64,000 nucleotides of DNA. Origin: an uncultured Muribaculaceae bacterium (GTDB lineage Bacteria; Bacillota_I; Bacilli_A; RF39; UBA660). This document shows, piece by piece, positions 16,652-26,426 of the stretch; position 1 is the first letter of the stretch; each line of letters opens with the position of its first letter. The DNA is taken from assembly GCA_964636965.1 (NCBI GenBank), contig CAZWST010000002.1:12344-76343 (forward strand). Reading direction: 5' to 3'. A program made the position numbers and the translations under genes. The notes under the pieces are model-generated. The model ran no database searches, was not told the DNA's origin, and saw nothing but the letters and a program-made list of their open reading frames with translations.

Positions 16652-18127
16652 TTATTTCACATTATTTTTTATTCTATTTTTAACATTAATAATTCCTAAA
16701 GAGAAAGCTACTAGATATATTGGAAAATAACAATATAAATATCTAGCTCTAGCTTCAAATATAGTTAAAAATAAGCTTATACCAATTATAGATAAAATAA
16801 CTGCATACTCAAAACTATTATTATCTTTTTTCACAATAGATGGAATAAAGAAAAGAATCATTAACCAAAGCCATTGCACAATTAAATGATACTGTTTGTT
16901 ATACTTGCCATTAGGTAAAATAATATTTCTAATAAATAAAGTTAATTTATTATTGGATTCTTTAACATTCATAAAGAAAGCTCCTTCATGCCCCCAAGCA
17001 AAAGATCCATCATTATAATTAACTAAAGTCTTGCGCGCAAAGAAATTAATTTGTTTTTTGAATTCTCTTTTAAATAATCTATTAGTTACTTTTTCATAAT
17101 TTTGATTTATTCCTTCACTCATCGTGTCTCCAACATCATCACCATTATAAATACCATCAGTTTCTTCATTTAACCCCATCGCCATAAAATGAATTAATTT
17201 AAATTGAATAACATCAGGGACATCATAATATTCAAGGTAAATTTTACTAGCTGAATTAATAGATAAAACAACAAGAATTCCTAAAATACTTGCACCCACA
17301 TTTATAAAAATCTTCTTAATATCCCATTTTTTTATGTTTACTATTTTACTAATATTAAAAAGTATCTCCGTAATAACTATCGCGATTAAAATAATAATAA
17401 CAGTTGGTTTTATATAAAATCCTAAGAATGATAAAAAACAAATAAAGAAATAATCTCGATAATCCTTTTTTTCTTTAGTATAAATATATAAAACTATTAT
17501 CGGAAATAAAGAAGCAAATGTATCAGAATAATATACAAGTATCCAAGGACTTAATAAAAACATAGGAATTAAAAAAACATAAATAAATAAAGACATAAAA
17601 TTACTTTTAGTTAAATTTCTTACTGTTAAGCTAGTAAATATTCCAGCTACATTTACAATAACTGAATTGAATATTAATATAAGAAAATTACTGTTACCAA
17701 TTAATGGTATTGACCTAATAAGTATAAGTAAAAATGTAAGCATTGAATTATTTGGATATCTTGTCATATAAGCCATATCATCTATTCTTCCATATCTCGA
17801 AAAGAAATTAACTGTTCTAACTAAATGACCAGCATCCCAAGTTTGACAAAAGTATCCATAAGCTTGAAAAACAAGTTGCATTCCAAAAACAATAAATGAA
17901 ATAATAATTAAAAACTTATAATAACTCTTATTTGATAAATCCTTTTTTTTATTAAATAAAGAAAAAATTAAAAAAATAATTAAGATAAATGCCAAAGACC
18001 AAATATTATTAATCATATAATTTCTCTCATTAATATAACTCATATTAGAAAAGAAGAATAATAATCCTAAAATATATATAAACATAGCAATAAATATTAC
18101 ATTCACTGATTTCTTTAAAAATTTCAT
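16652..18127 (-). CDS. polytopic membrane protein, possibly a GT-C type (ArnT/PMT-like) glycosyltransferase
   Basis: About 12 predicted TM helices plus a large loop. The function is inferred only from architecture. Confidence 0.4.
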   Translation of the reverse strand: MKFLKKSVNVIFIAMFIYILGLLFFFSNMSYINERNYMINNIWSLAFILIIFLIFSLFNKKKDLSNKSYYKFLIIISFIVFGMQLVFQAYGYFCQTWDAGHLVRTVNFFSRYGRIDDMAYMTRYPNNSMLTFLLILIRSIPLIGNSNFLILIFNSVIVNVAGIFTSLTVRNLTKSNFMSLFIYVFLIPMFLLSPWILVYYSDTFASLFPIIVLYIYTKEKKDYRDYFFICFLSFLGFYIKPTVIIILIAIVITEILFNISKIVNIKKWDIKKIFINVGASILGILVVLSINSASKIYLEYYDVPDVIQFKLIHFMAMGLNEETDGIYNGDDVGDTMSEGINQNYEKVTNRLFKREFKKQINFFARKTLVNYNDGSFAWGHEGAFFMNVKESNNKLTLFIRNIILPNGKYNKQYHLIVQWLWLMILFFIPSIVKKDNNSFEYAVILSIIGISLFLTIFEARARYLYCYFPIYLVAFSLGIINVKNRIKNNVK

Positions 18128-18263
18128 ATGCTCACCCTATACTTTAAACTATTATCATTATACAAAATATAGAAGTTTCTTACAAGACAATTAAAAATTA
18201 ATAAAATTTATCTATATTTATTATATTAAATAGTTTATAATTTAATTGAAAGGTTTTGATAAA

Positions 18264-19121
18264 ATGGAAACAAAATCAAAAATAAAACAAAGACTTATAA
18301 ATCATAAAAATATTTTTAATAAAGATATATATGACTATTTAAATTCATTATTAGAATTAGAAATATCGGCAGTTAAAGAATCTTTAAATGAAAATGAAAA
18401 GAGAGTATTAAATAACTTCCCAATATATCAACAAATTGCAATTTATAATATTTATAATCGTGCATTAAAAATAATAAGTGAATTGGATTTAGGGATACCA
18501 ATTAAAAAGAATAGAGACGAATTATCTATATCAACTTCTATCGGTAAATTAGAGTTACCATTATTCTCTTTTGCGATTAACGATGATGATTTATTAGGTA
18601 CTATTGATTTATATAAAAGAGTATTTGATAAAGATATAAATGAAAAACTTTTAGAAAATACGAAAGAAAAATTAACAATATTATATAGTGAAAAATGTCC
18701 ATATCATGAAAATGAAGGTATTGATGATCCATTAGAAATTGTCTATGGTGGTCCTAGTTCAATATGGTTAGGAGAATATAATGATAAAGTAAGACATCTT
18801 CAGGAGTTATTAACAAGATTAAACGTTAGAAAAGAATTAACCAAAGACGAAAGTGATTCAATATACTATACTGAAGAAATACAAAGATCACTTCTTGAAG
18901 ATTATGGATTAAATGAAACTAACCTAGTTTGTGAAGAAGAACAAGAATTAGAAAGTATAGAAAAGATAGAAGATGAAAAAGAAAAAGCATATGCTTTATT
19001 GGCACACGCGATGAAAACTTATAATTCTTCTTGTGGAATTCAACCAAAAGAAGACGAAAAAACTCTTTCTAAAAAATTACCATTAGTAGTAATAAATAGC
19101 AACATTAAATATATTATCTAA
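18264..19121 (+). CDS. hypothetical protein (~285 aa)
   Basis: Long ORF. I prefer the ATG at 18264 (after GAAAGG) over the TTG at 18246. Confidence 0.45.
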   Translation: METKSKIKQRLINHKNIFNKDIYDYLNSLLELEISAVKESLNENEKRVLNNFPIYQQIAIYNIYNRALKIISELDLGIPIKKNRDELSISTSIGKLELPLFSFAINDDDLLGTIDLYKRVFDKDINEKLLENTKEKLTILYSEKCPYHENEGIDDPLEIVYGGPSSIWLGEYNDKVRHLQELLTRLNVRKELTKDESDSIYYTEEIQRSLLEDYGLNETNLVCEEEQELESIEKIEDEKEKAYALLAHAMKTYNSSCGIQPKEDEKTLSKKLPLVVINSNIKYII

Positions 19122-19672: not shown

Positions 19673-22171
19673 TTATTTACCACAACAATTTTTGTACTTT
19701 TTGCCCGAGCCGCAAGGACACTTGTCATTACGACCAATTTTAGCATCATTCTTTATTGTCTTTTTTACTTTTTCTTTTCCATCTCCAGCGTTTCCTTCCA
19801 TTTGTCTAGCGCCAAAGTTTTGTTTTATTTCCATTTTAAGTAGGAATGTAGCAATTGATGCATCAATGTTATCTTGCATTGCTTCAAACATTTCATAACC
19901 TTCTAATGCATATGCTTGCAATGGATTATTTTGACCATATCCACGAAGACCAATTCCTTCTCTTAATTGATCCATATCTGCAATATGTTTAACCCATGCT
20001 TCATCTATAACTCTTAAAGAAATATGTTTTTCAAAATCTGTTACAATTTCTTCAGGAACTACTTCAATCTTTTCTTCATAATCAGCAATTACTCTTTCGC
20101 TTAAGATATCGAATACATCATCTTCCTTTTTACCATATAGATCTTCAGGTCTGATTTTTTCTTTCTTAATTAAGTTATGATTAATTGTGTCACATATTCC
20201 TTCCATATCGGCATTAGTTAGATATCCTTCTGGTGCAATATGAGCATCTATAATTTCATCAATATAATCACATATAATATCACGAATAATTTGATGAATA
20301 TCTTCAGAATCTAAGATTTCATTTCTTCTTTCATAAATAATCTTTCTTTGTTCAGAAACTATATTATCATAGTCAAGTAAGTTCTTACGCATATCATAGT
20401 TGTTTCCTTCAACTTTCTTTTGAGCAGATTCAACAGATTTAGTAAACATCTTACTTCTTACTTGTTGCATATCATCTAATCCTAAAGATTGAACCATATT
20501 TTTTACTTTATCAGCACCAAATCTGTGCATTAATTCATCTTCAAATGAGATGAAAAATTGAGAATATCCAGGATCTCCTTGACGTCCAGCACGACCACGT
20601 AACTGATTATCAATACGACGAGATTCATGTCTTTCAGTACCAATTACACATAAACCACCAAGTTCAGCTACACCTTCACCTAACTTAATATCTGTACCAC
20701 GACCAGCCATATTAGTTGCTATAGTAACAGCACCTTTTTCACCAGCCTTAGCAATAATCTCAGCTTCTCTTGCATGATTCTTTGCATTTAATACTTCATG
20801 CTTAATTCCTGCTTTTTCAAGCATTCTCGATAATCTTTCATTGTTTTCAACAGATATTGTACCAACTAGTATTGGTTGTCCAGTTTCATGTACTTGCTTT
20901 ATGAATTCAACAATATTTTTAAATTTAGCTGATTCAGTAGCATACATGATATCTGACATATCTTTTCTTATACAAGGTTTATTTGTAGGAATTTGAATAA
21001 CATACATGTTATAAATATCCCTAAATTCTTCTTCTTCAGTTTTAGCTGTACCTGTCATACCAGATATTTTTGCATACATTCTGAATAAATTTTGGAATGT
21101 TATTGTAGCCATAGTGCGAGTTTCTTCATTAATCTTAACTCCCTCTTTAGCTTCAATAGCTTGATGTAATCCATCACTAAATTGTCTTCCTTGCATTAAA
21201 CGACCTGTAAATGGGTCAACTATAACAATTTTTTGCTCTCCATCAACAACATAGTCAACATCAAGTTTCATTCCATAATTTGCTTTTAGTGCTTGATTGA
21301 TATGGTGCACTAGTGCAGTATTACCTTCATCATATAAGTTATTCAACTTAAAGAACTTTTCAATCTTCTTAGAACCATCTTCAGTTAACATAACTGATTT
21401 AGTCTTAGCATCAACTGTATAGTCATCTTCTTCTGTTAAAGATTTAACAGCTTTATCAGCTTCACGATAAAGATTAGCTGAATTAACTTTACCACCACTT
21501 ATAATTAAAGGAGTACGAGCTTCATCTATTAAAATTGAGTCTACCTCGTCTAGAATAACATAGTTAAGTTTTCTTAAAACTCTGTCTTCTTTTCTTACAA
21601 CCATGTTATCTCTTAGATAGTCAAAACCAACTTCATTATTAGTTGAGTAAGTTATATCACATGCATACACTTTTCTCTTTTCTTCTGGAGCCATTTCATG
21701 TAAGTTAACTCCTACAGTTAAACCTAAGAATTCATAGATTGGTCTCATCCATTCAGCATTACGTTCAGTTAAGTATTCATTAACCGTAACAACATGAACA
21801 CCTTTGCCAGTTAAAGCATTTAAATACGCAGGTAATATAGTTGTTAAAGTTTTACCTTCACCAGTTTTTAACTCAGCAATATTACCGTAGTGTAATGCTA
21901 AACCACCTAATAATTGAACATAGTAAGGTTTTTCACCTATTTGTCTATAAGCAACCTCTCTAGCTGCAGCAAAAGCAGTAACAATTATTTCTTCATCATT
22001 AATAGTCTTCCCAGCTTCTAGTTGTGCTTTTAACTTATCTGTAGTAGCAGCTAAATCTTCATCACTCATAGAAGTGTATTTATCATCTAAAGCTACTATC
22101 TTATCAGCTATTTTTTTAAATCTTTTTAATTCTTTATATTCAGTATCTACTAAATTTTTTAATAATCCCAT
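19673..22171 (-). CDS. secA: preprotein translocase ATPase SecA
   Basis: 832 aa. Walker A region ELKTGEGKTL, DEAD-like DEVDSILIDEARTPLIISG, and a C-terminal zinc motif CPCGSGKKYKNCCG. Confidence 0.97.
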   Translation of the reverse strand: MGLLKNLVDTEYKELKRFKKIADKIVALDDKYTSMSDEDLAATTDKLKAQLEAGKTINDEEIIVTAFAAAREVAYRQIGEKPYYVQLLGGLALHYGNIAELKTGEGKTLTTILPAYLNALTGKGVHVVTVNEYLTERNAEWMRPIYEFLGLTVGVNLHEMAPEEKRKVYACDITYSTNNEVGFDYLRDNMVVRKEDRVLRKLNYVILDEVDSILIDEARTPLIISGGKVNSANLYREADKAVKSLTEEDDYTVDAKTKSVMLTEDGSKKIEKFFKLNNLYDEGNTALVHHINQALKANYGMKLDVDYVVDGEQKIVIVDPFTGRLMQGRQFSDGLHQAIEAKEGVKINEETRTMATITFQNLFRMYAKISGMTGTAKTEEEEFRDIYNMYVIQIPTNKPCIRKDMSDIMYATESAKFKNIVEFIKQVHETGQPILVGTISVENNERLSRMLEKAGIKHEVLNAKNHAREAEIIAKAGEKGAVTIATNMAGRGTDIKLGEGVAELGGLCVIGTERHESRRIDNQLRGRAGRQGDPGYSQFFISFEDELMHRFGADKVKNMVQSLGLDDMQQVRSKMFTKSVESAQKKVEGNNYDMRKNLLDYDNIVSEQRKIIYERRNEILDSEDIHQIIRDIICDYIDEIIDAHIAPEGYLTNADMEGICDTINHNLIKKEKIRPEDLYGKKEDDVFDILSERVIADYEEKIEVVPEEIVTDFEKHISLRVIDEAWVKHIADMDQLREGIGLRGYGQNNPLQAYALEGYEMFEAMQDNIDASIATFLLKMEIKQNFGARQMEGNAGDGKEKVKKTIKNDAKIGRNDKCPCGSGKKYKNCCGK

Positions 22172-22254
22172 AGTATTTACCCTCCGTATATAACATTATA
22201 ACATAAAACATGTAAAAAAAGCCATAAATTATACATATTATGGTGAAAAATATC

Positions 22255-23403
22255 CTATTTATTAGGTACTTTTTCTAAAGTTTCTTTCTTAATTAACTTT
22301 TTTTCATATTTAGTAAGCATTTTACCTTGGTCCTTCAAGTCTACATTCTTTTTTATTTCATCCCATAAAAGAAGTATTCTTTCTCTTTCAGCAGCTAAAA
22401 ATGATTCTTTTAAAATAAGTGATTCGTAAAATAGATTCCCTGGTGCGCGTCTTTCATTTTCTTCAATTAAACGACCATTTGTAATTTTGTAATTATAAAC
22501 AGAATAAGCAGATTTTCTAGAATAATAACCAAAAGCAACATAAATACAGTAAGCAAGCACTAATACAGAATAGATTATTTTAGCATTGAAAAGTTTTTTA
22601 GATAAAACAACATCAATATCTTCCGGATTTTCATATTTAATTATTGTAATTAAAACTTCTTTTTTTTGAGATGCATCTAATGAAGATAAAATATCTCTAT
22701 CGTTTTTTGTAAGTAATCTTGAATCATTTAATGTTTTAATTAGTCTATCATATAGTTCTACATATTCTTGATTATCATCTATCTCTTCAAATTCTTCGGT
22801 ATCTCCATTATCTTTAGGAATATAATTGGAAACAGATGAAAAAGACTTAGCTTGAAGTTCTCCATCTTCTTTTCTAACTAACGATGCTTCTAAATAGGTA
22901 TCATCAGTATTTATTTTAATTTCATATGTATCATTAATATCAACTCTACTAACTGCACATAAACCATCAGGTTCACTAACAGTACAATTTAAAAGATCTT
23001 CTAAATCATTTAAAACACAAACATAATCGCTTGTTTTACATTCACCATTATCTGGATTATATAAAGTTGTTTCCTTAGTATATCTAGGTACTTTTTTATC
23101 AAACTTAATATCTTTTAAAGTGGTATAAGAATAAAGAGAAGAAGATATAAGAATTGCTGGCAAACTAACAAATAAGAATCTATACTTACGAATGCTTAAA
23201 TAATTAGGAAGAAAGACAGATAAATTTGAAGTTCTCACATTTTCTTCTAATTGATCTATTTTAATTCTAGAACCTTTATCATAAACAACATTATTTGTAT
23301 CCTCTTTAGTATCACTAATTCTTTTCAAGTTTACTCTATCACGATTTTTTAAATAGTTGTATTTTCTTTTATTATTAATAACAGCTTTTAATGTTGATAA
23401 CAT
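22255..23403 (-). CDS. 2-TM membrane protein, paralog 1 of a tandem triplet (unknown family)
   Basis: It shares MLSTLKAVINN...LKNRDRV at the N-terminus and KESFLAAERERILLL...LTKYEKKLIKK at the C-terminus with the two neighbouring genes. Confidence 0.6.
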   Translation of the reverse strand: MLSTLKAVINNKRKYNYLKNRDRVNLKRISDTKEDTNNVVYDKGSRIKIDQLEENVRTSNLSVFLPNYLSIRKYRFLFVSLPAILISSSLYSYTTLKDIKFDKKVPRYTKETTLYNPDNGECKTSDYVCVLNDLEDLLNCTVSEPDGLCAVSRVDINDTYEIKINTDDTYLEASLVRKEDGELQAKSFSSVSNYIPKDNGDTEEFEEIDDNQEYVELYDRLIKTLNDSRLLTKNDRDILSSLDASQKKEVLITIIKYENPEDIDVVLSKKLFNAKIIYSVLVLAYCIYVAFGYYSRKSAYSVYNYKITNGRLIEENERRAPGNLFYESLILKESFLAAERERILLLWDEIKKNVDLKDQGKMLTKYEKKLIKKETLEKVPNK

Positions 23404-23477
23404 AATAACACCTCATTACAAAAAGTTATTCTACCTAAAATACTATAAATATGCAAGAAAAAAGACAGATGAGTTAA

Positions 23478-24602
23478 TTATCTGTCTAATTTTTTCCCTG
23501 CTTTTTTTATTAATTTTTTTTCATATGAAGTTAATAATTTATTACGATCCGATTCTCTAACGTTTTCCACAATTTCCTTATTCAATAACAATATTCTTTC
23601 TTTTTCAGCTGCTAAAAATGCTTCTTTCATTTTTAATGCCGAGAACCAAACACTGCCATCATATACATCTCTTTCTGTAACAAGGGTTCCATTTTTGTGG
23701 TCTAAACAAGTTGTTCCAAACTCTTCTTTTCTATAATTATATGAAGCAATAAGTAAAACATCATAGATAAATGCAATAAGTCCTAAAATAACCTTTCTAG
23801 GAATTCTAGTTTTTGAAAGTATTACTTCAACATTTCCTTTATCTTGATAAGTAACTATATTTAAAATAATACTCTGCTTTTCACTATTTGTAATTGAGTC
23901 CAATAGTTCTTTTTCGTCCTTGCTTAATGATGATGATTCCTCAATAATTGCAAGAGCACGATCAAATAAAGATACATATTCATCATCATTTTCATCTTGA
24001 AAATTTAAACCATCATTATTGTTAATATCAATATAGTTATTAACAACATCAGCTGATGAAACAGTCATTTCACCATTACCATCAATTTTTAAATCAGCAG
24101 TTAAACACTTTTCACCATTATGATATTCAATTAAAATCTTATTACTAGCATAAGTAATTACTTCCCCATTTTCTGGCTGCACTAATTGATGCCCAAAAAA
24201 TTCACCAGAATCGCCTAAATCATAAGTATCTTTTATAGTAGTACTAACACCAGCATCAGAATCATAAATAGTTTCATTTCTAACATAATAATGCGCAGTA
24301 TCATTTTTATCAACTCTAGAAGGAGTTTGTACAAGCCAAATAGCTGCAGCAGATAATAAAGCAGGAAGAGTAACTACAACAAATCTATATGCTCTTAAAG
24401 TAAAATAATTACCTGCAAAAGTTTTAAGATTACTAACTCTCATATCTCCTTGCAATTTCATTATTTTGTCTTTTGATCCACTCTCATTAACTATATTATT
24501 AGTTTCAGTACTCGTTTCCTTTTCAAGAGTAACTCTATCAATATTTTTTAGAAATTTAAACTGATTTAAATTATTTATAATTGTTTTTGTTGTATCTAAC
24601 AT
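23478..24602 (-). CDS. 2-TM membrane protein, paralog 2 of a tandem triplet (unknown family)
   Basis: MLDTTKTIINNLNQFKFLKNIDRV at the N-terminus and KEAFLAAEKERILLLNKEI...LTSYEKKLIKK at the C-terminus. Confidence 0.6.
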   Translation of the reverse strand: MLDTTKTIINNLNQFKFLKNIDRVTLEKETSTETNNIVNESGSKDKIMKLQGDMRVSNLKTFAGNYFTLRAYRFVVVTLPALLSAAAIWLVQTPSRVDKNDTAHYYVRNETIYDSDAGVSTTIKDTYDLGDSGEFFGHQLVQPENGEVITYASNKILIEYHNGEKCLTADLKIDGNGEMTVSSADVVNNYIDINNNDGLNFQDENDDEYVSLFDRALAIIEESSSLSKDEKELLDSITNSEKQSIILNIVTYQDKGNVEVILSKTRIPRKVILGLIAFIYDVLLIASYNYRKEEFGTTCLDHKNGTLVTERDVYDGSVWFSALKMKEAFLAAEKERILLLNKEIVENVRESDRNKLLTSYEKKLIKKAGKKLDR

Positions 24603-24622
24603 AAAATACCACCTTTTCTAGC

Positions 24623-25765
24623 TTAGTTCTTTCCCATATACATACTAGCTCGTGCATCTTCAACTTTAGCTCGCTTAATTAATTTTTTTTCATAACCTGT
24701 AAGCAATTTAGAAGATTCATTTGAAGCAACATTTTCATTTATTTCTTTATTTAATAAAAGAATTCTTTCTCTTTCAGCAGCTAAAAAAGCTTCTTTATAT
24801 TTAACAGCTTGAAAGAACAAATTTACTGTTCTATTATACTCTTCATAAAGCCTTCCATTTTCATGTAAAAGAGTAACGAACTCAAAGGCTTTTTCTTTCT
24901 TATCATCATAATAAAAGATATCAACTATTCCACTAATTACTAACATAAAGATAACAATTACTTTAAACAGTGTTTTTGACTTGGTAACTCCAACTTTAAT
25001 ATCACCTAAATCAATATACTTTTCAATTTCTATGATAACTGTTTTTTTATCATCTTCATTTAAATTTTCTAGCATCTCTAAGCCATCTTCAGATAACCAA
25101 GATGAATCTTTAACTAGTTTAACTAATTTATCATATAAAGCATCATAATTATTTCCAGCATCAGTAAAATTCATCTCCGTATAATCTATAAAATCATAAT
25201 GATCCCCAGTATAAATTTCATTAACAGAAAGTAAATCTTTAGAATTAATATCAATTAAAGCATTTATATAATCATCTTCATTATATATCTGCAATCTAAT
25301 TGTATCTTTAATACTGTCATTTTTTAAGGCCTGTTTATCATCTTTTAAAACATAAGTCCCAATTCCTTTATCAACAACATAGCCAGTGCTTCTTTCTTCT
25401 ACTTCTCCATAATTAGAATTATAAGTAGTACATACCTTTTCGTATGCTGGTAATTCTTTCGTAGTTGGAATCCTTTTTGGCGGAAAAAAAGACGCAATAG
25501 ATAAAACAGATAACATTGCTGGTAAAGAAATAAACCAAAATCTTCTCCATCTAAGTTTAGCATAATTCTTTATAAACACATGTAAGTTACTAACTCTATT
25601 ATCCGTCTCTAAATAATTAATTCTATTTAAAGTACCATCAGTTGTTCTAATATTATTGCTTTCCCCATCACTAACTTCGATTTTTTTTAAATGAACACGA
25701 TCTCTATTTTTTAAATATTTAAACTGATTAAGATTATTAATTACACACTTCGTTGTATCTAACAT
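24623..25765 (-). CDS. 2-TM membrane protein, paralog 3 of a tandem triplet (unknown family)
   Basis: MLDTTKCVINNLNQFKYLKNRDRV at the N-terminus and KEAFLAAERERILLLNKEI...LTGYEKKLIKR at the C-terminus. Confidence 0.6.
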   Translation of the reverse strand: MLDTTKCVINNLNQFKYLKNRDRVHLKKIEVSDGESNNIRTTDGTLNRINYLETDNRVSNLHVFIKNYAKLRWRRFWFISLPAMLSVLSIASFFPPKRIPTTKELPAYEKVCTTYNSNYGEVEERSTGYVVDKGIGTYVLKDDKQALKNDSIKDTIRLQIYNEDDYINALIDINSKDLLSVNEIYTGDHYDFIDYTEMNFTDAGNNYDALYDKLVKLVKDSSWLSEDGLEMLENLNEDDKKTVIIEIEKYIDLGDIKVGVTKSKTLFKVIVIFMLVISGIVDIFYYDDKKEKAFEFVTLLHENGRLYEEYNRTVNLFFQAVKYKEAFLAAERERILLLNKEINENVASNESSKLLTGYEKKLIKRAKVEDARASMYMGKN

Positions 25766-25844
25766 ATTAAAGACTCCTTCTTGAGTACATATTCTAAACT
25801 ATAATGCCTTAAAACACAAGAAAAAAAGAGCTAATGCTCTTAGT

Positions 25845-26369
25845 TTATCTACTATTAATGATTCCGTAGTTTCCTTCTTTTCTCTTATAGATTAAAGAAA
25901 TACATTCTTCATCAACATTTTTAAATAAGAAAAAGTCATGTCCTAATAAATCCATTTGTAAAATAGCTTCTTCTTCACTCATAGGTTTAGAAGAAATATC
26001 TTTTCTTTTAACTATTACATCAGTTGATTCTTCATCATCACTTTCAATAGTTGCAAAACCAAATGGTTCTTCATTTCTTTTTTTATTTAACTTTGTTTTA
26101 TTCTTTCTGATTTGTCTTTCTAAAACATCTATAACTAAATCGATAGCAGCATATAAATCTTCATTTTTTTCTTCTGCTCTTAATGTATATTTACCTGTAG
26201 GTATAGTAACTTCAATTACTTCAATTCCATTTCTCACGCGAATTAAGACATGAGCATCAATTGAACTTGGTTCATCAAAGTATTTATCTAAACGATCTAA
26301 TTTCTCCTTAACATAATTTTTAATTGAATCTGTAACTTCAATTTTGTCTCCACGAATATTAATATTCAC
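25845..26369 (-). CDS. hpf: ribosome hibernation promoting factor (long HPF)
   Basis: NINIRGDKIEVTDSIKNYVKEKL at the N-terminus, with a C-terminal dimerisation domain EEAILQMDLLGHDFFLFKN. The likely start is the GTG at 26369, 8 nt after GGAAGG. Confidence 0.9.
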   Translation of the reverse strand: MNINIRGDKIEVTDSIKNYVKEKLDRLDKYFDEPSSIDAHVLIRVRNGIEVIEVTIPTGKYTLRAEEKNEDLYAAIDLVIDVLERQIRKNKTKLNKKRNEEPFGFATIESDDEESTDVIVKRKDISSKPMSEEEAILQMDLLGHDFFLFKNVDEECISLIYKRKEGNYGIINSR

Positions 26370-26426
26370 GAATATCACCTTCCTAGCTTTATTATATCAA
26401 GGAATAACTAACTAGTTCAAGCAAAA

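Follow-up and report, generated by a model that had tools for sequence, protein, structure and literature searches.

A genus-specific family of putative two-pass membrane proteins, without known relatives, at the hpf-secA junction of uncultured gut Bacilli

In a 64,000-nucleotide stretch of DNA from an uncultured gut bacterium (GenBank assembly GCA_964636965.1, contig CAZWST010000002.1, positions 12,344 to 76,343 of the forward strand; hereafter the window), three consecutive genes at positions 22255..25765 separate hpf, the gene for the ribosome hibernation promoting factor, from secA. What are these genes, how did they come to lie at this site, and what might their products do? An initial annotation, made from the letters of the sequence, described them as a tandem triplication of a membrane protein of no recognisable family, with conserved cytoplasmic ends and a hypervariable ectodomain, inserted into a housekeeping junction.

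Profile searches, comparative genomics and structure prediction were applied to this locus. As judged by these comparisons, the trio belongs to an orphan family that falls into no known family, represents a genus-specific insertion into an old and conserved junction, and consists of old paralogues held under purifying selection. The role that we favour, tentatively and with a probability of about 0.4, is that of accessory envelope adaptors or sensors, in which a cytoplasmic module shared by all copies would bind the same partner or the sister subunits, with outer domains that would be specialised.

Three paralogous genes of an orphan family

The copies are designated c1, c2 and c3 from the secA side to the hpf side; G000 denotes the window's own genome and G007 that of a sister species. 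The genes and their flanks are as follows (lengths in amino acids, aa).

22255..23403, minus strand: c1, nearest secA, 382 aa (open reading frame, alignment, hydropathy); the copy used for modelling
23478..24602, minus strand: c2, the middle gene, 374 aa (open reading frame, alignment, hydropathy)
24623..25765, minus strand: c3, nearest hpf, 380 aa (open reading frame, alignment, hydropathy)
25845..26378, minus strand: hpf, the upstream flank (Pfam Ribosomal_S30AE, E 1.4e-27, and Ribosom_S30AE_C)
19673..22171, minus strand: secA, the downstream flank (Pfam SecA_DEAD, E 5.7e-121, SecA_PP_bind, SecA_SW and SEC-C)
22377..22401, plus strand: 25-nt DNA repeat encoding the FLAAERE motif (other copies at 23594-23618 and 24763-24787)

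The number, strand and lengths of the genes and the identity of both flanks thus agree with the initial annotation. All three reading frames are intact, c2 starts 20 nt past the stop codon of c3, c1 ends 83 nt short of secA, and the G+C content of the trio (0.24-0.29) is similar to that of the flanks. The proteins share 33-38% pairwise identity, and N-terminal, pre-transmembrane and C-terminal blocks are common to all of them; the blocks read as previously described, save that c1 has RTSNL where RVSNL had been given. The C-terminal tail of the proteins is conserved in the alignment and rich in lysine. The blocks are also visible in the DNA, as had been proposed: the 25-mer is exact at 22377 and 24763, has two mismatches at 23594, and found no match in any of 100 shuffles.

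Two profiles were used, one of 15 sequences for a set of 1,835,955,588 representative proteins and one of 57 sequences for the genomes of the window's genus and the PDB. The 15-sequence profile recovered 75 proteins at E<=1e-3, all of 341-426 aa or fragments. A word-indexed search returned 25 proteins, none with a Pfam domain, for which the sole source name was 'hypothetical protein [Bacilli bacterium]'. None of the three copies reached a curated cut-off in Pfam (best BscB_a-b, 17.9 bits against a cut-off of 23.7) or in NCBIfam (best 13.1 bits against 290), and the 57 aligned members, compared singly with Pfam, yielded no recurring family (maximum 3/57 per family). PADLOC-DB 2.0 gave chance-level matches only (PDC-M47B, E 0.14, for one copy of three), PHROGs v4 gave no significant match (best E 0.086), and the 57-sequence profile retrieved 0 PDB chains at E<=10. 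No named neighbour was found in the ESM Atlas, where c3 scored at best 0.81, with an unnamed cluster, and the 'named' search for c2 returned nothing usable. Among viral contigs of IMG/VR, 0 of 221 pattern matches encode a relative, in a scan that detects only relatives keeping two short peptide patterns; a search for related loci by alignment returned one genome locus (L055, from an uncultured Bacilli bacterium) and zero viral loci. The motifs YEKKLIK, FLAAERER and FLAAEKER were absent from the literature searched, and nothing on a membrane-protein family in the hpf/secA neighbourhood was found among the matches listed. Pfam, NCBIfam, PADLOC, PHROG and PDB-profile searches all bear out the annotator's failure to recognise a family, and the proteins are not a familiar housekeeping component either, the family being neither single-copy nor widely conserved.

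The three copies appear to follow one architecture. In the predicted layout of c3, a cytoplasmic N-terminal end (residues 1-71) is followed by a first transmembrane segment (TM1, ~72-96), an outer domain (~97-265), a second transmembrane segment (TM2, ~266-289) and a cytoplasmic C-terminal end (290-380), and c1 and c2 are laid out in the same way. The two membrane segments of the initial annotation are recovered with a 19-residue hydropathy window in 14 of 15 aligned members; the first hydrophobic segment of c1 lies just below the threshold, yet is aligned with TM1 of the others. Lysine and arginine together number 5.1 per 20 residues before TM1 and 3.2 after it, and the topology is most likely one of two membrane crossings with both ends in the cytoplasm. 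Across the 57 members, which include the clade of a distant paralogue, N10, N60 and R342 do not vary, and P82 (in TM1), A338 and E339 hardly do. Since all polar invariant residues sit in the cytoplasmic ends, the helices of the two ends probably come together as a single small module in the cytoplasm. The least conserved region is TM2 (0.27 over the 57 members), whose core has an acidic residue in 35/57 members, c1-type copies being without it.

In the AlphaFold2 (AF2) model of c1, the N-terminal part consists of short helices (residues 2-20), a disordered linker and a long helix (47-94) running into TM1; a beta-rich domain (98-270) with three helices (211-249) follows, and the C-terminal part comprises TM2 (272-295), a hairpin (302-319) and helices (324-375). 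Folded alone, the outer domain of c1 is mostly beta-strand, opens and closes with strands of 19-21 residues, and reaches a predicted local distance difference test score (pLDDT) of 87.4 and a predicted TM-score (pTM) of 0.79. At E<=1e-3, Foldseek found no match in the PDB for full-length c1 or for the outer domain, and none in BFVD for the outer domain; the best VIA-align Z of the outer domain was 3.3. The models rest on a shallow alignment, and the fold comparison covered PDB and BFVD. Because the model is confident and finds no structural match, the roughly 170-residue alpha/beta outer domain is a candidate for a new fold.

Insertion into the hpf-secA junction and distribution of the family

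How did the trio come to stand between two housekeeping genes? The hpf gene is present in 22/22 species genomes of the genus. In 12 of them the next gene is secA, after a gap of about 170-230 bp, and family-bearing genomes have one to three family genes between the two, so that the survey proposed in the initial annotation yields 0, 1, 2 or 3 copies at this site. In eight of the nine readable flanks (G000, G014, G018, G013, G010, G021, G005 and G012) secA lies directly downstream of the last family gene; the G007 contig ends after c1. The exception is G020, in which hpf and secA are adjacent and the sole copy lies on another contig, upstream of rpsL-rpsG. Outside the genus, 28 hpf loci from 28 other genera of the same taxonomic family were compared: hpf is followed directly by secA in 21, by one unrelated gene and then secA in three, and by other genes in three, and one locus runs into a contig edge. 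No reading frame of these 28 loci matched the family, even at E<=1. Since hpf abuts secA in 12/22 genomes of the genus and in 21/28 other genera, the comparison supports the earlier suggestion of an insertion into a conserved junction, and identifies it as specific to the genus. The suggestion had been drawn from the adjacency of hpf and secA in Bacillus subtilis; a figure legend of a B. subtilis paper names the region 'yvyD-secA'. Between hpf and secA in the window, no integrase, transposase or other mobile gene was found. The unrelated genes at this place in three other genera suggest a junction that readily takes up accessory genes.

The family was found in 10 of the 22 genomes of the genus. 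Among 301 genomes of 127 genera of the order, strong matches occur only in the window's genus. Four weak matches were obtained at order level (E 5e-5 to 1e-3): the one to a frame of similar size, in G168, was rejected as a many-pass transporter-like protein, and the other three cover frames of 72-120 aa. A 353-aa frame after hpf in G005 was missed by hmmsearch, but hhalign aligns it to the profile with a probability of 97% (E 8e-11). The family thus diverges fast enough to escape its own hidden Markov model, and absence elsewhere accordingly means not found with these queries. The window's genome (1.49 Mb, 85% complete) carries the three copies and, on a different contig, a single distant paralogue of 351 aa. 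Beyond it, intact frames of 350-390 aa were found in nine further species and on contigs of other studies, and the trio stretch or close variants of it occur in gut metagenomes that several studies obtained from rats and mice.

Is the trio expressed together with its neighbours? The intergenic regions contain the following elements.

25826..25841, minus strand: terminator-like hairpin and T-run just past the hpf stop codon (consensus scan and sequence reading)
23463..23487, minus strand: 10-bp hairpin over the c2 stop codon, then a minus-strand T-run (the scan lists the stem on the plus strand; the T-run comes from repeat reading)
22214..22243, minus strand: A+T-rich hairpin (22222-22243) and seven-T run (22214-22220) past the c1 stop codon (sequence reading)
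22181..22203, minus strand: extended -10 element of secA, TGTTATAAT (22195-22203), and Shine-Dalgarno sequence GGAGG (22181-22185) (sequence reading)

The hairpin between c2 and c1 may be a partial terminator, and the hairpin with T-run past c1 is likely the end of the trio transcript. Clearer terminators occupy the same position behind the family genes in G010, G005 and G013; compared with shuffled sequences, the intergenic fold is clear in G010 (z -3.64), with z -1.89 in G005, -0.87 in the window and -0.87 to -0.02 in the others. The TGTTATAAT element of secA is conserved in G014 and G018, and in 6/6 intergenic regions folded secA keeps an extended -10 element and a free, unpaired Shine-Dalgarno sequence. 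A ribosome-binding site (GAAGGAG) lies 8 nt ahead of the ATG of c3. The promoter scan gave 46 matches against 51.8 in shuffles, thus no excess, and a c3 promoter candidate (TTGTGT-17-TAGAAT) is weak and is not claimed. Because a hairpin follows hpf, a hairpin with T-run follows c1 and secA has a separate -10 element, the trio is most likely a transcription unit of its own, uncoupled from secA.

A cluster of genes on one strand (L056 7585-15975, on contig C10 of G000), with the same order in L057, L058 and L059, closes with the distant paralogue. It opens with genes for GT2 and GT1 glycosyltransferases; a double-zinc-ribbon protein of 303 aa and a protein of 709 aa with a prepilin-type methylation motif at its N-terminus come next, and an arylsulfotransferase-like (ASST-like) protein of 666 aa, anchored in the membrane and comprising an Ig-like domain and a propeller, precedes the paralogue. 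In genomes that lack the paralogue, 9/10 loci with sequence have in its place a protein of 321-427 aa with a signal peptide and a C-terminal anchor; this protein is transglutaminase-like in 3/3 cases scanned and, in the one case compared, unrelated to the family (hhalign probability 2.3%). A functional link between the paralogue and the ASST-like protein was considered and rejected, as the ASST-like gene is present in 22/22 genomes of the genus and the slot otherwise holds an unrelated protein.

Several further observations concern individual copies and loci. The c3-type copy of G018 (L007 2692-3972, identical to P0089) has an acidic low-complexity insertion of ~45 residues right after TM2, and the 90% cluster to which it belongs is the one most widely seen in public data, its 66 sequences lying on 335 contigs. 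The second copy of G012 (L100 1787-2913) contains an in-frame TAA, its longest frame, of 304 aa, beginning inside TM1; this copy could be a pseudogene, or the assembly may be wrong here. The copy of G020 (L010, contig C48) precedes a gene for a 122-aa membrane protein and then rpsL-rpsG; this genome has 280 contigs and 4% contamination, and the copy-bearing contig may come from another strain. In G007, a gene for a large DUF285/BspA-type leucine-rich-repeat surface protein is inserted between hpf and c3 (L034 1-1404, L005 2707-3981), so that the junction of this species has gained a second accessory gene. The single unrelated junction genes of the three other genera encode a 216-aa protein with four membrane segments (L081 2056-2706), a 195-aa protein with six (L086 724-1311) and a 199-aa soluble protein (L074 820-1419). 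Near secA in the window, frames of 491 aa (16652-18127, minus strand) and 291 aa (18246-19121, plus strand) have no Pfam match at E<=0.01, and a 99-aa protein encoded next to secA comprises only the DNA-binding domain of O6-methylguanine methyltransferase.

Age, paralogy and selection

Is the trio the outcome of a recent triplication, as its description had implied? The three paralogous copies stand, and the recent event does not. G007 has one orthologue each for c1, c2 and c3, in the same order, with identities of 47%, 54% and 77%, respectively; c3 is the best conserved between species and c1 the fastest-evolving. In a quick maximum-likelihood tree of 95 sequences (Shimodaira-Hasegawa-like approximate likelihood-ratio support only, long branches flagged) the copies group by type across genomes, with G000_c3, G007_c3, G014_b and G018_b together, the c2 and c1 types as sister groups and the distant paralogues as a separate clade. 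Because a sister species has 1:1 orthologues and the copies group by type, they are best read as old paralogues. Two duplications could have produced them, the first separating c3 from c1/c2 and the second c1 from c2.

Recombination between the copies through their conserved blocks had also been envisaged. For all three copies, the orthologues of G000 and G007 are more alike than the paralogues within a genome in 5/5 regions compared, so that the shared DNA blocks would reflect conserved codons. With paralogues never closer than orthologues and a tree that follows type and not genome, gene conversion between the copies was rejected. On a rough species tree (hpf and 400 residues of SecA, FastTree, midpoint root) the genomes with the family fall into three clades apart from one another, and one loss, that in G016, is nested. 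This distribution fits an acquisition early in the history of the genus and several later losses, although transfer within the genus may also have occurred.

The ratio of nonsynonymous to synonymous substitution rates (dN/dS) was computed between G000 and G007 by the Nei-Gojobori method; dS is near saturation, and the values are rough.

c1: whole gene 0.34, outer domain 0.66
c2: whole gene 0.31, outer domain 0.39
c3: whole gene 0.165, outer domain 0.12
hpf: whole gene 0.107
smpB: whole gene 0.045

These ratios indicate that the trio genes are under purifying selection, relaxed in comparison with their neighbours and most so in the outer domain of c1. A diversifying ectodomain, as first proposed, is at odds with ratios that stay below 1 in every computable region. 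The ectodomain had in addition been called barely alignable and hypervariable. It is indeed the most diverged part of the proteins, with 21-27% identity between the window copies against 45-57% in the cytoplasmic ends; however, it aligns with few gaps and yields one confident common fold, and both terms overstate its divergence.

Between strains the picture is different. On single contigs from two other studies the three genes stand in the same arrangement; 154 and 156 of 4301 bases differ there, an identity of about 96.4%. On shorter contigs of runs X11 and X12, the DNA differences amount to 0.3-1.2% in hpf, 1.4-2.1% in c1, 4.5-5.5% in c2 and 4-11% in c3, and one c3 strain allele (P0076) has 27 amino-acid changes, 18 of them in the outer domain and four in TM2. 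The rates are thus inverted: c3, together with c2, is the most variable between strains, yet c3 is the best conserved between species. This inversion could be due to recombination that brought imported alleles into c2-c3, or to a recent sweep that affected c1. The X12 contigs cover pieces of all three genes; the label 'METAGENOMIC RNA-Seq' of this run is a guess and provides no evidence of transcription.

Proposed role and alternative explanations

What might a trio of this kind do? An accessory envelope adaptor or sensor is suggested because the family is dispensable yet selected, two-pass, conserved in its polar cytoplasmic parts, diverged between paralogues in its outer domain and long fixed in its gene order. 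In such a system, the cytoplasmic module, alike in all copies, would bind the same partner or the sister copies, and the outer domains of the paralogues would have specialised after duplication and would bind different partners outside the cell. Several observations weigh against this proposal. The family has no match in 12/22 genomes of the genus, six of which are 91-95% complete, which makes its function dispensable. No positive-inside signal is seen at TM2 (2.6 lysine and arginine residues on either side), which leaves TM1 and the lack of a signal peptide as the basis of the proposed topology. Although its mean pLDDT is 79.8, the full-length c1 model built on the 15-sequence alignment reaches a pTM of only 0.53. 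Mean column conservation over the 57 members is 0.34 in the outer domain against 0.39 in either cytoplasmic end, and the pattern of a common inside and a variable outside appears clear only between paralogues within one genome. Finally, no regulator or obvious partner gene lies beside the trio.

Known proteins of similar layout provide points of comparison. Two-pass sensors, such as histidine kinases and chemoreceptors, have both ends inside and, between their two membrane segments, a folded domain of 150-190 residues, and their paralogues share a cytoplasmic part and differ outside. In contrast to them, none of the 57 members contains a HAMP, DHp, HATPase/kinase or methyl-accepting (MCP) signalling domain by Pfam, the C-terminal end of the trio proteins is only ~85 residues long and accompanied by a conserved N-terminal end of 70 residues, and the fold search of the outer domain gave no match to a Cache/PAS or four-helix-bundle fold. 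RsgI-type anti-sigma paralogue sets of clostridia likewise combine a conserved cytoplasmic end with divergent outer sensing domains. These proteins are single-pass, encoded beside sigma factor genes and equipped with carbohydrate-binding modules, none of which was seen in the trio. The ring-forming Wzz/Wzc polysaccharide co-polymerases and seipin, with their periplasmic or luminal domains, resemble the trio in having two membrane segments that flank an outer domain, and Wzc and yeast Sei1 appear among the top non-significant Foldseek rows (E 0.026-0.04), with TM-scores <=0.10 (Wzc 0.07) and root-mean-square deviations of 23-32 A, hence no real structural match. The periplasmic domain of Wzz/Wzc is helical and accompanied by a Wzz domain, whereas the outer domain of the trio is mostly beta-strand and no Wzz domain was found by Pfam among the 57 members. 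Taken over signalling domains, a Wzz or helical outer domain and coupling to secA, the family lacks the testable defining features of the two-pass sensors, of the co-polymerases and seipin-like ring formers, and of the arrest peptides considered below.

The proteins might instead form an interface with phages, as surface receptors that phages use or as decoys or exclusion proteins, with phage pressure driving copy number and outer-domain sequence. The patchy, accessory distribution, a junction copy number of 1 to 3, evolution faster than that of the flanking housekeeping genes, the concentration of c3 strain changes in the outer domain and the excess of c2/c3 strain differences over those of hpf would all agree with such a role. 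The searches of PADLOC and PHROG, however, gave nothing significant, the pattern scan of IMG/VR no relative and BFVD no fold match; mobile genes are absent between hpf and secA and the G+C content is like that of the flanks; the order of copy types is constant across species, which fits vertical descent; and dN/dS nowhere exceeds 1. We consider this explanation unlikely. As improbable, in our estimate, is a bolder possibility, namely that the family constitutes a new class of two-pass surface receptor, with an unseen outer fold, that arose in a single genus, assembles into mixed oligomers, of one, two or three subunit types according to the species, through its conserved membrane and cytoplasmic parts, and has alleles exchanged or selected between strains, as the strain diversity of c2-c3 hints. 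The trio would then be the prokaryotic counterpart of two-pass receptors and channels that are heteromeric.

Another explanation, which we regard as quite unlikely, is an oligomeric two-pass channel or pore: a ring of several subunits, mixed where a species has two or three copies, lined by TM2, with a stalk of membrane-proximal beta-strands. The two-pass architecture with both ends inside, the acidic residue in the TM2 core of most members, the long strands next to the membrane, which would be poorly stable alone, and the nearly invariant proline of TM1 could be read in this way. TM2 is nevertheless the least conserved region and lacks the acidic residue in c1-type copies, which would be unusual for a pore lining; no link in fold or sequence to any channel family was found, and trimeric two-pass animal channels are similar in layout only.

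The position next to hpf and secA raises the question of a factor linked to the ribosome or the Sec machinery, either a SecM/MifM-type monitor of secA or a membrane-tethered ribosome binder acting with hpf. The arrest peptides SecM, MifM and VemP share with the trio a location upstream of secA, membrane targeting and a conserved C-terminal block, and family genes lie directly upstream of a sec gene in eight of the nine visible flanks. Co-transcription and a Shine-Dalgarno sequence masked by an mRNA structure, which a stalled ribosome would open, are not seen: the GGAGG of secA is unpaired, the fold of the window's intergenic region is unremarkable, and the trio appears as a separate unit with a terminator-like hairpin ahead of the secA promoter. 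SecM-like coupling was therefore rejected on intergenic anatomy. The trio proteins are two to four times larger than the arrest peptides and occur in several copies; proteins of 350-380 aa with a folded outer domain are also unlike the small substrates by which secretion is monitored, and their C-terminal block seems to resemble no arrest motif that we know of. The distant paralogue and the G020 copy lie at other loci, the paralogue away from any sec gene, all secA-adjacent copies derive from one insertion and so count as a single event, and 12/22 genomes of the genus have secA without the family. The conserved lysine-rich tail and the existence of membrane-anchored ribosome-inactivating proteins, YqjD/ElaB/YgaM (bioRxiv 10.1101/2024.08.16.608256), would speak for a factor linked to the ribosome or the Sec machinery. 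A link of either kind is, on balance, very unlikely.

The idea that the frames are in decay or without meaning, or that a housekeeping gene of a known kind was overlooked, as the in-frame stop and shortened frame of the second G012 copy and the loss of the family in many species might suggest, is largely refuted by the intact frames in further species and studies, the dN/dS of 0.17-0.34, the confident AF2 models, the ribosome-binding site ahead of c3, and the failure to find a known family at any threshold tried for genes that are neither single-copy nor widespread. The remaining probability falls to functions outside the explanations listed.

An accessory envelope adaptor or sensor remains the role that we favour. 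What is new is the family and the candidate fold and not any demonstrated mechanism, and the trio is best filed as a new family. Its narrow range limits the immediate impact, orphan membrane proteins being common in such genomes. Still, a confident model with no structural match provides a candidate new fold, and the occurrence of 0, 1, 2 or 3 copies at a single fixed chromosomal site is a natural series useful for studying the divergence of membrane-protein paralogues. The hpf-secA locus is an example of a housekeeping junction that repeatedly accepted accessory membrane-protein genes. Because it has no relative by sequence profile or predicted fold, is under purifying selection, is present in three or four copies and is stable across rodent-gut studies, the family marks a lineage-specific envelope function in uncultured small-genome gut Bacilli.

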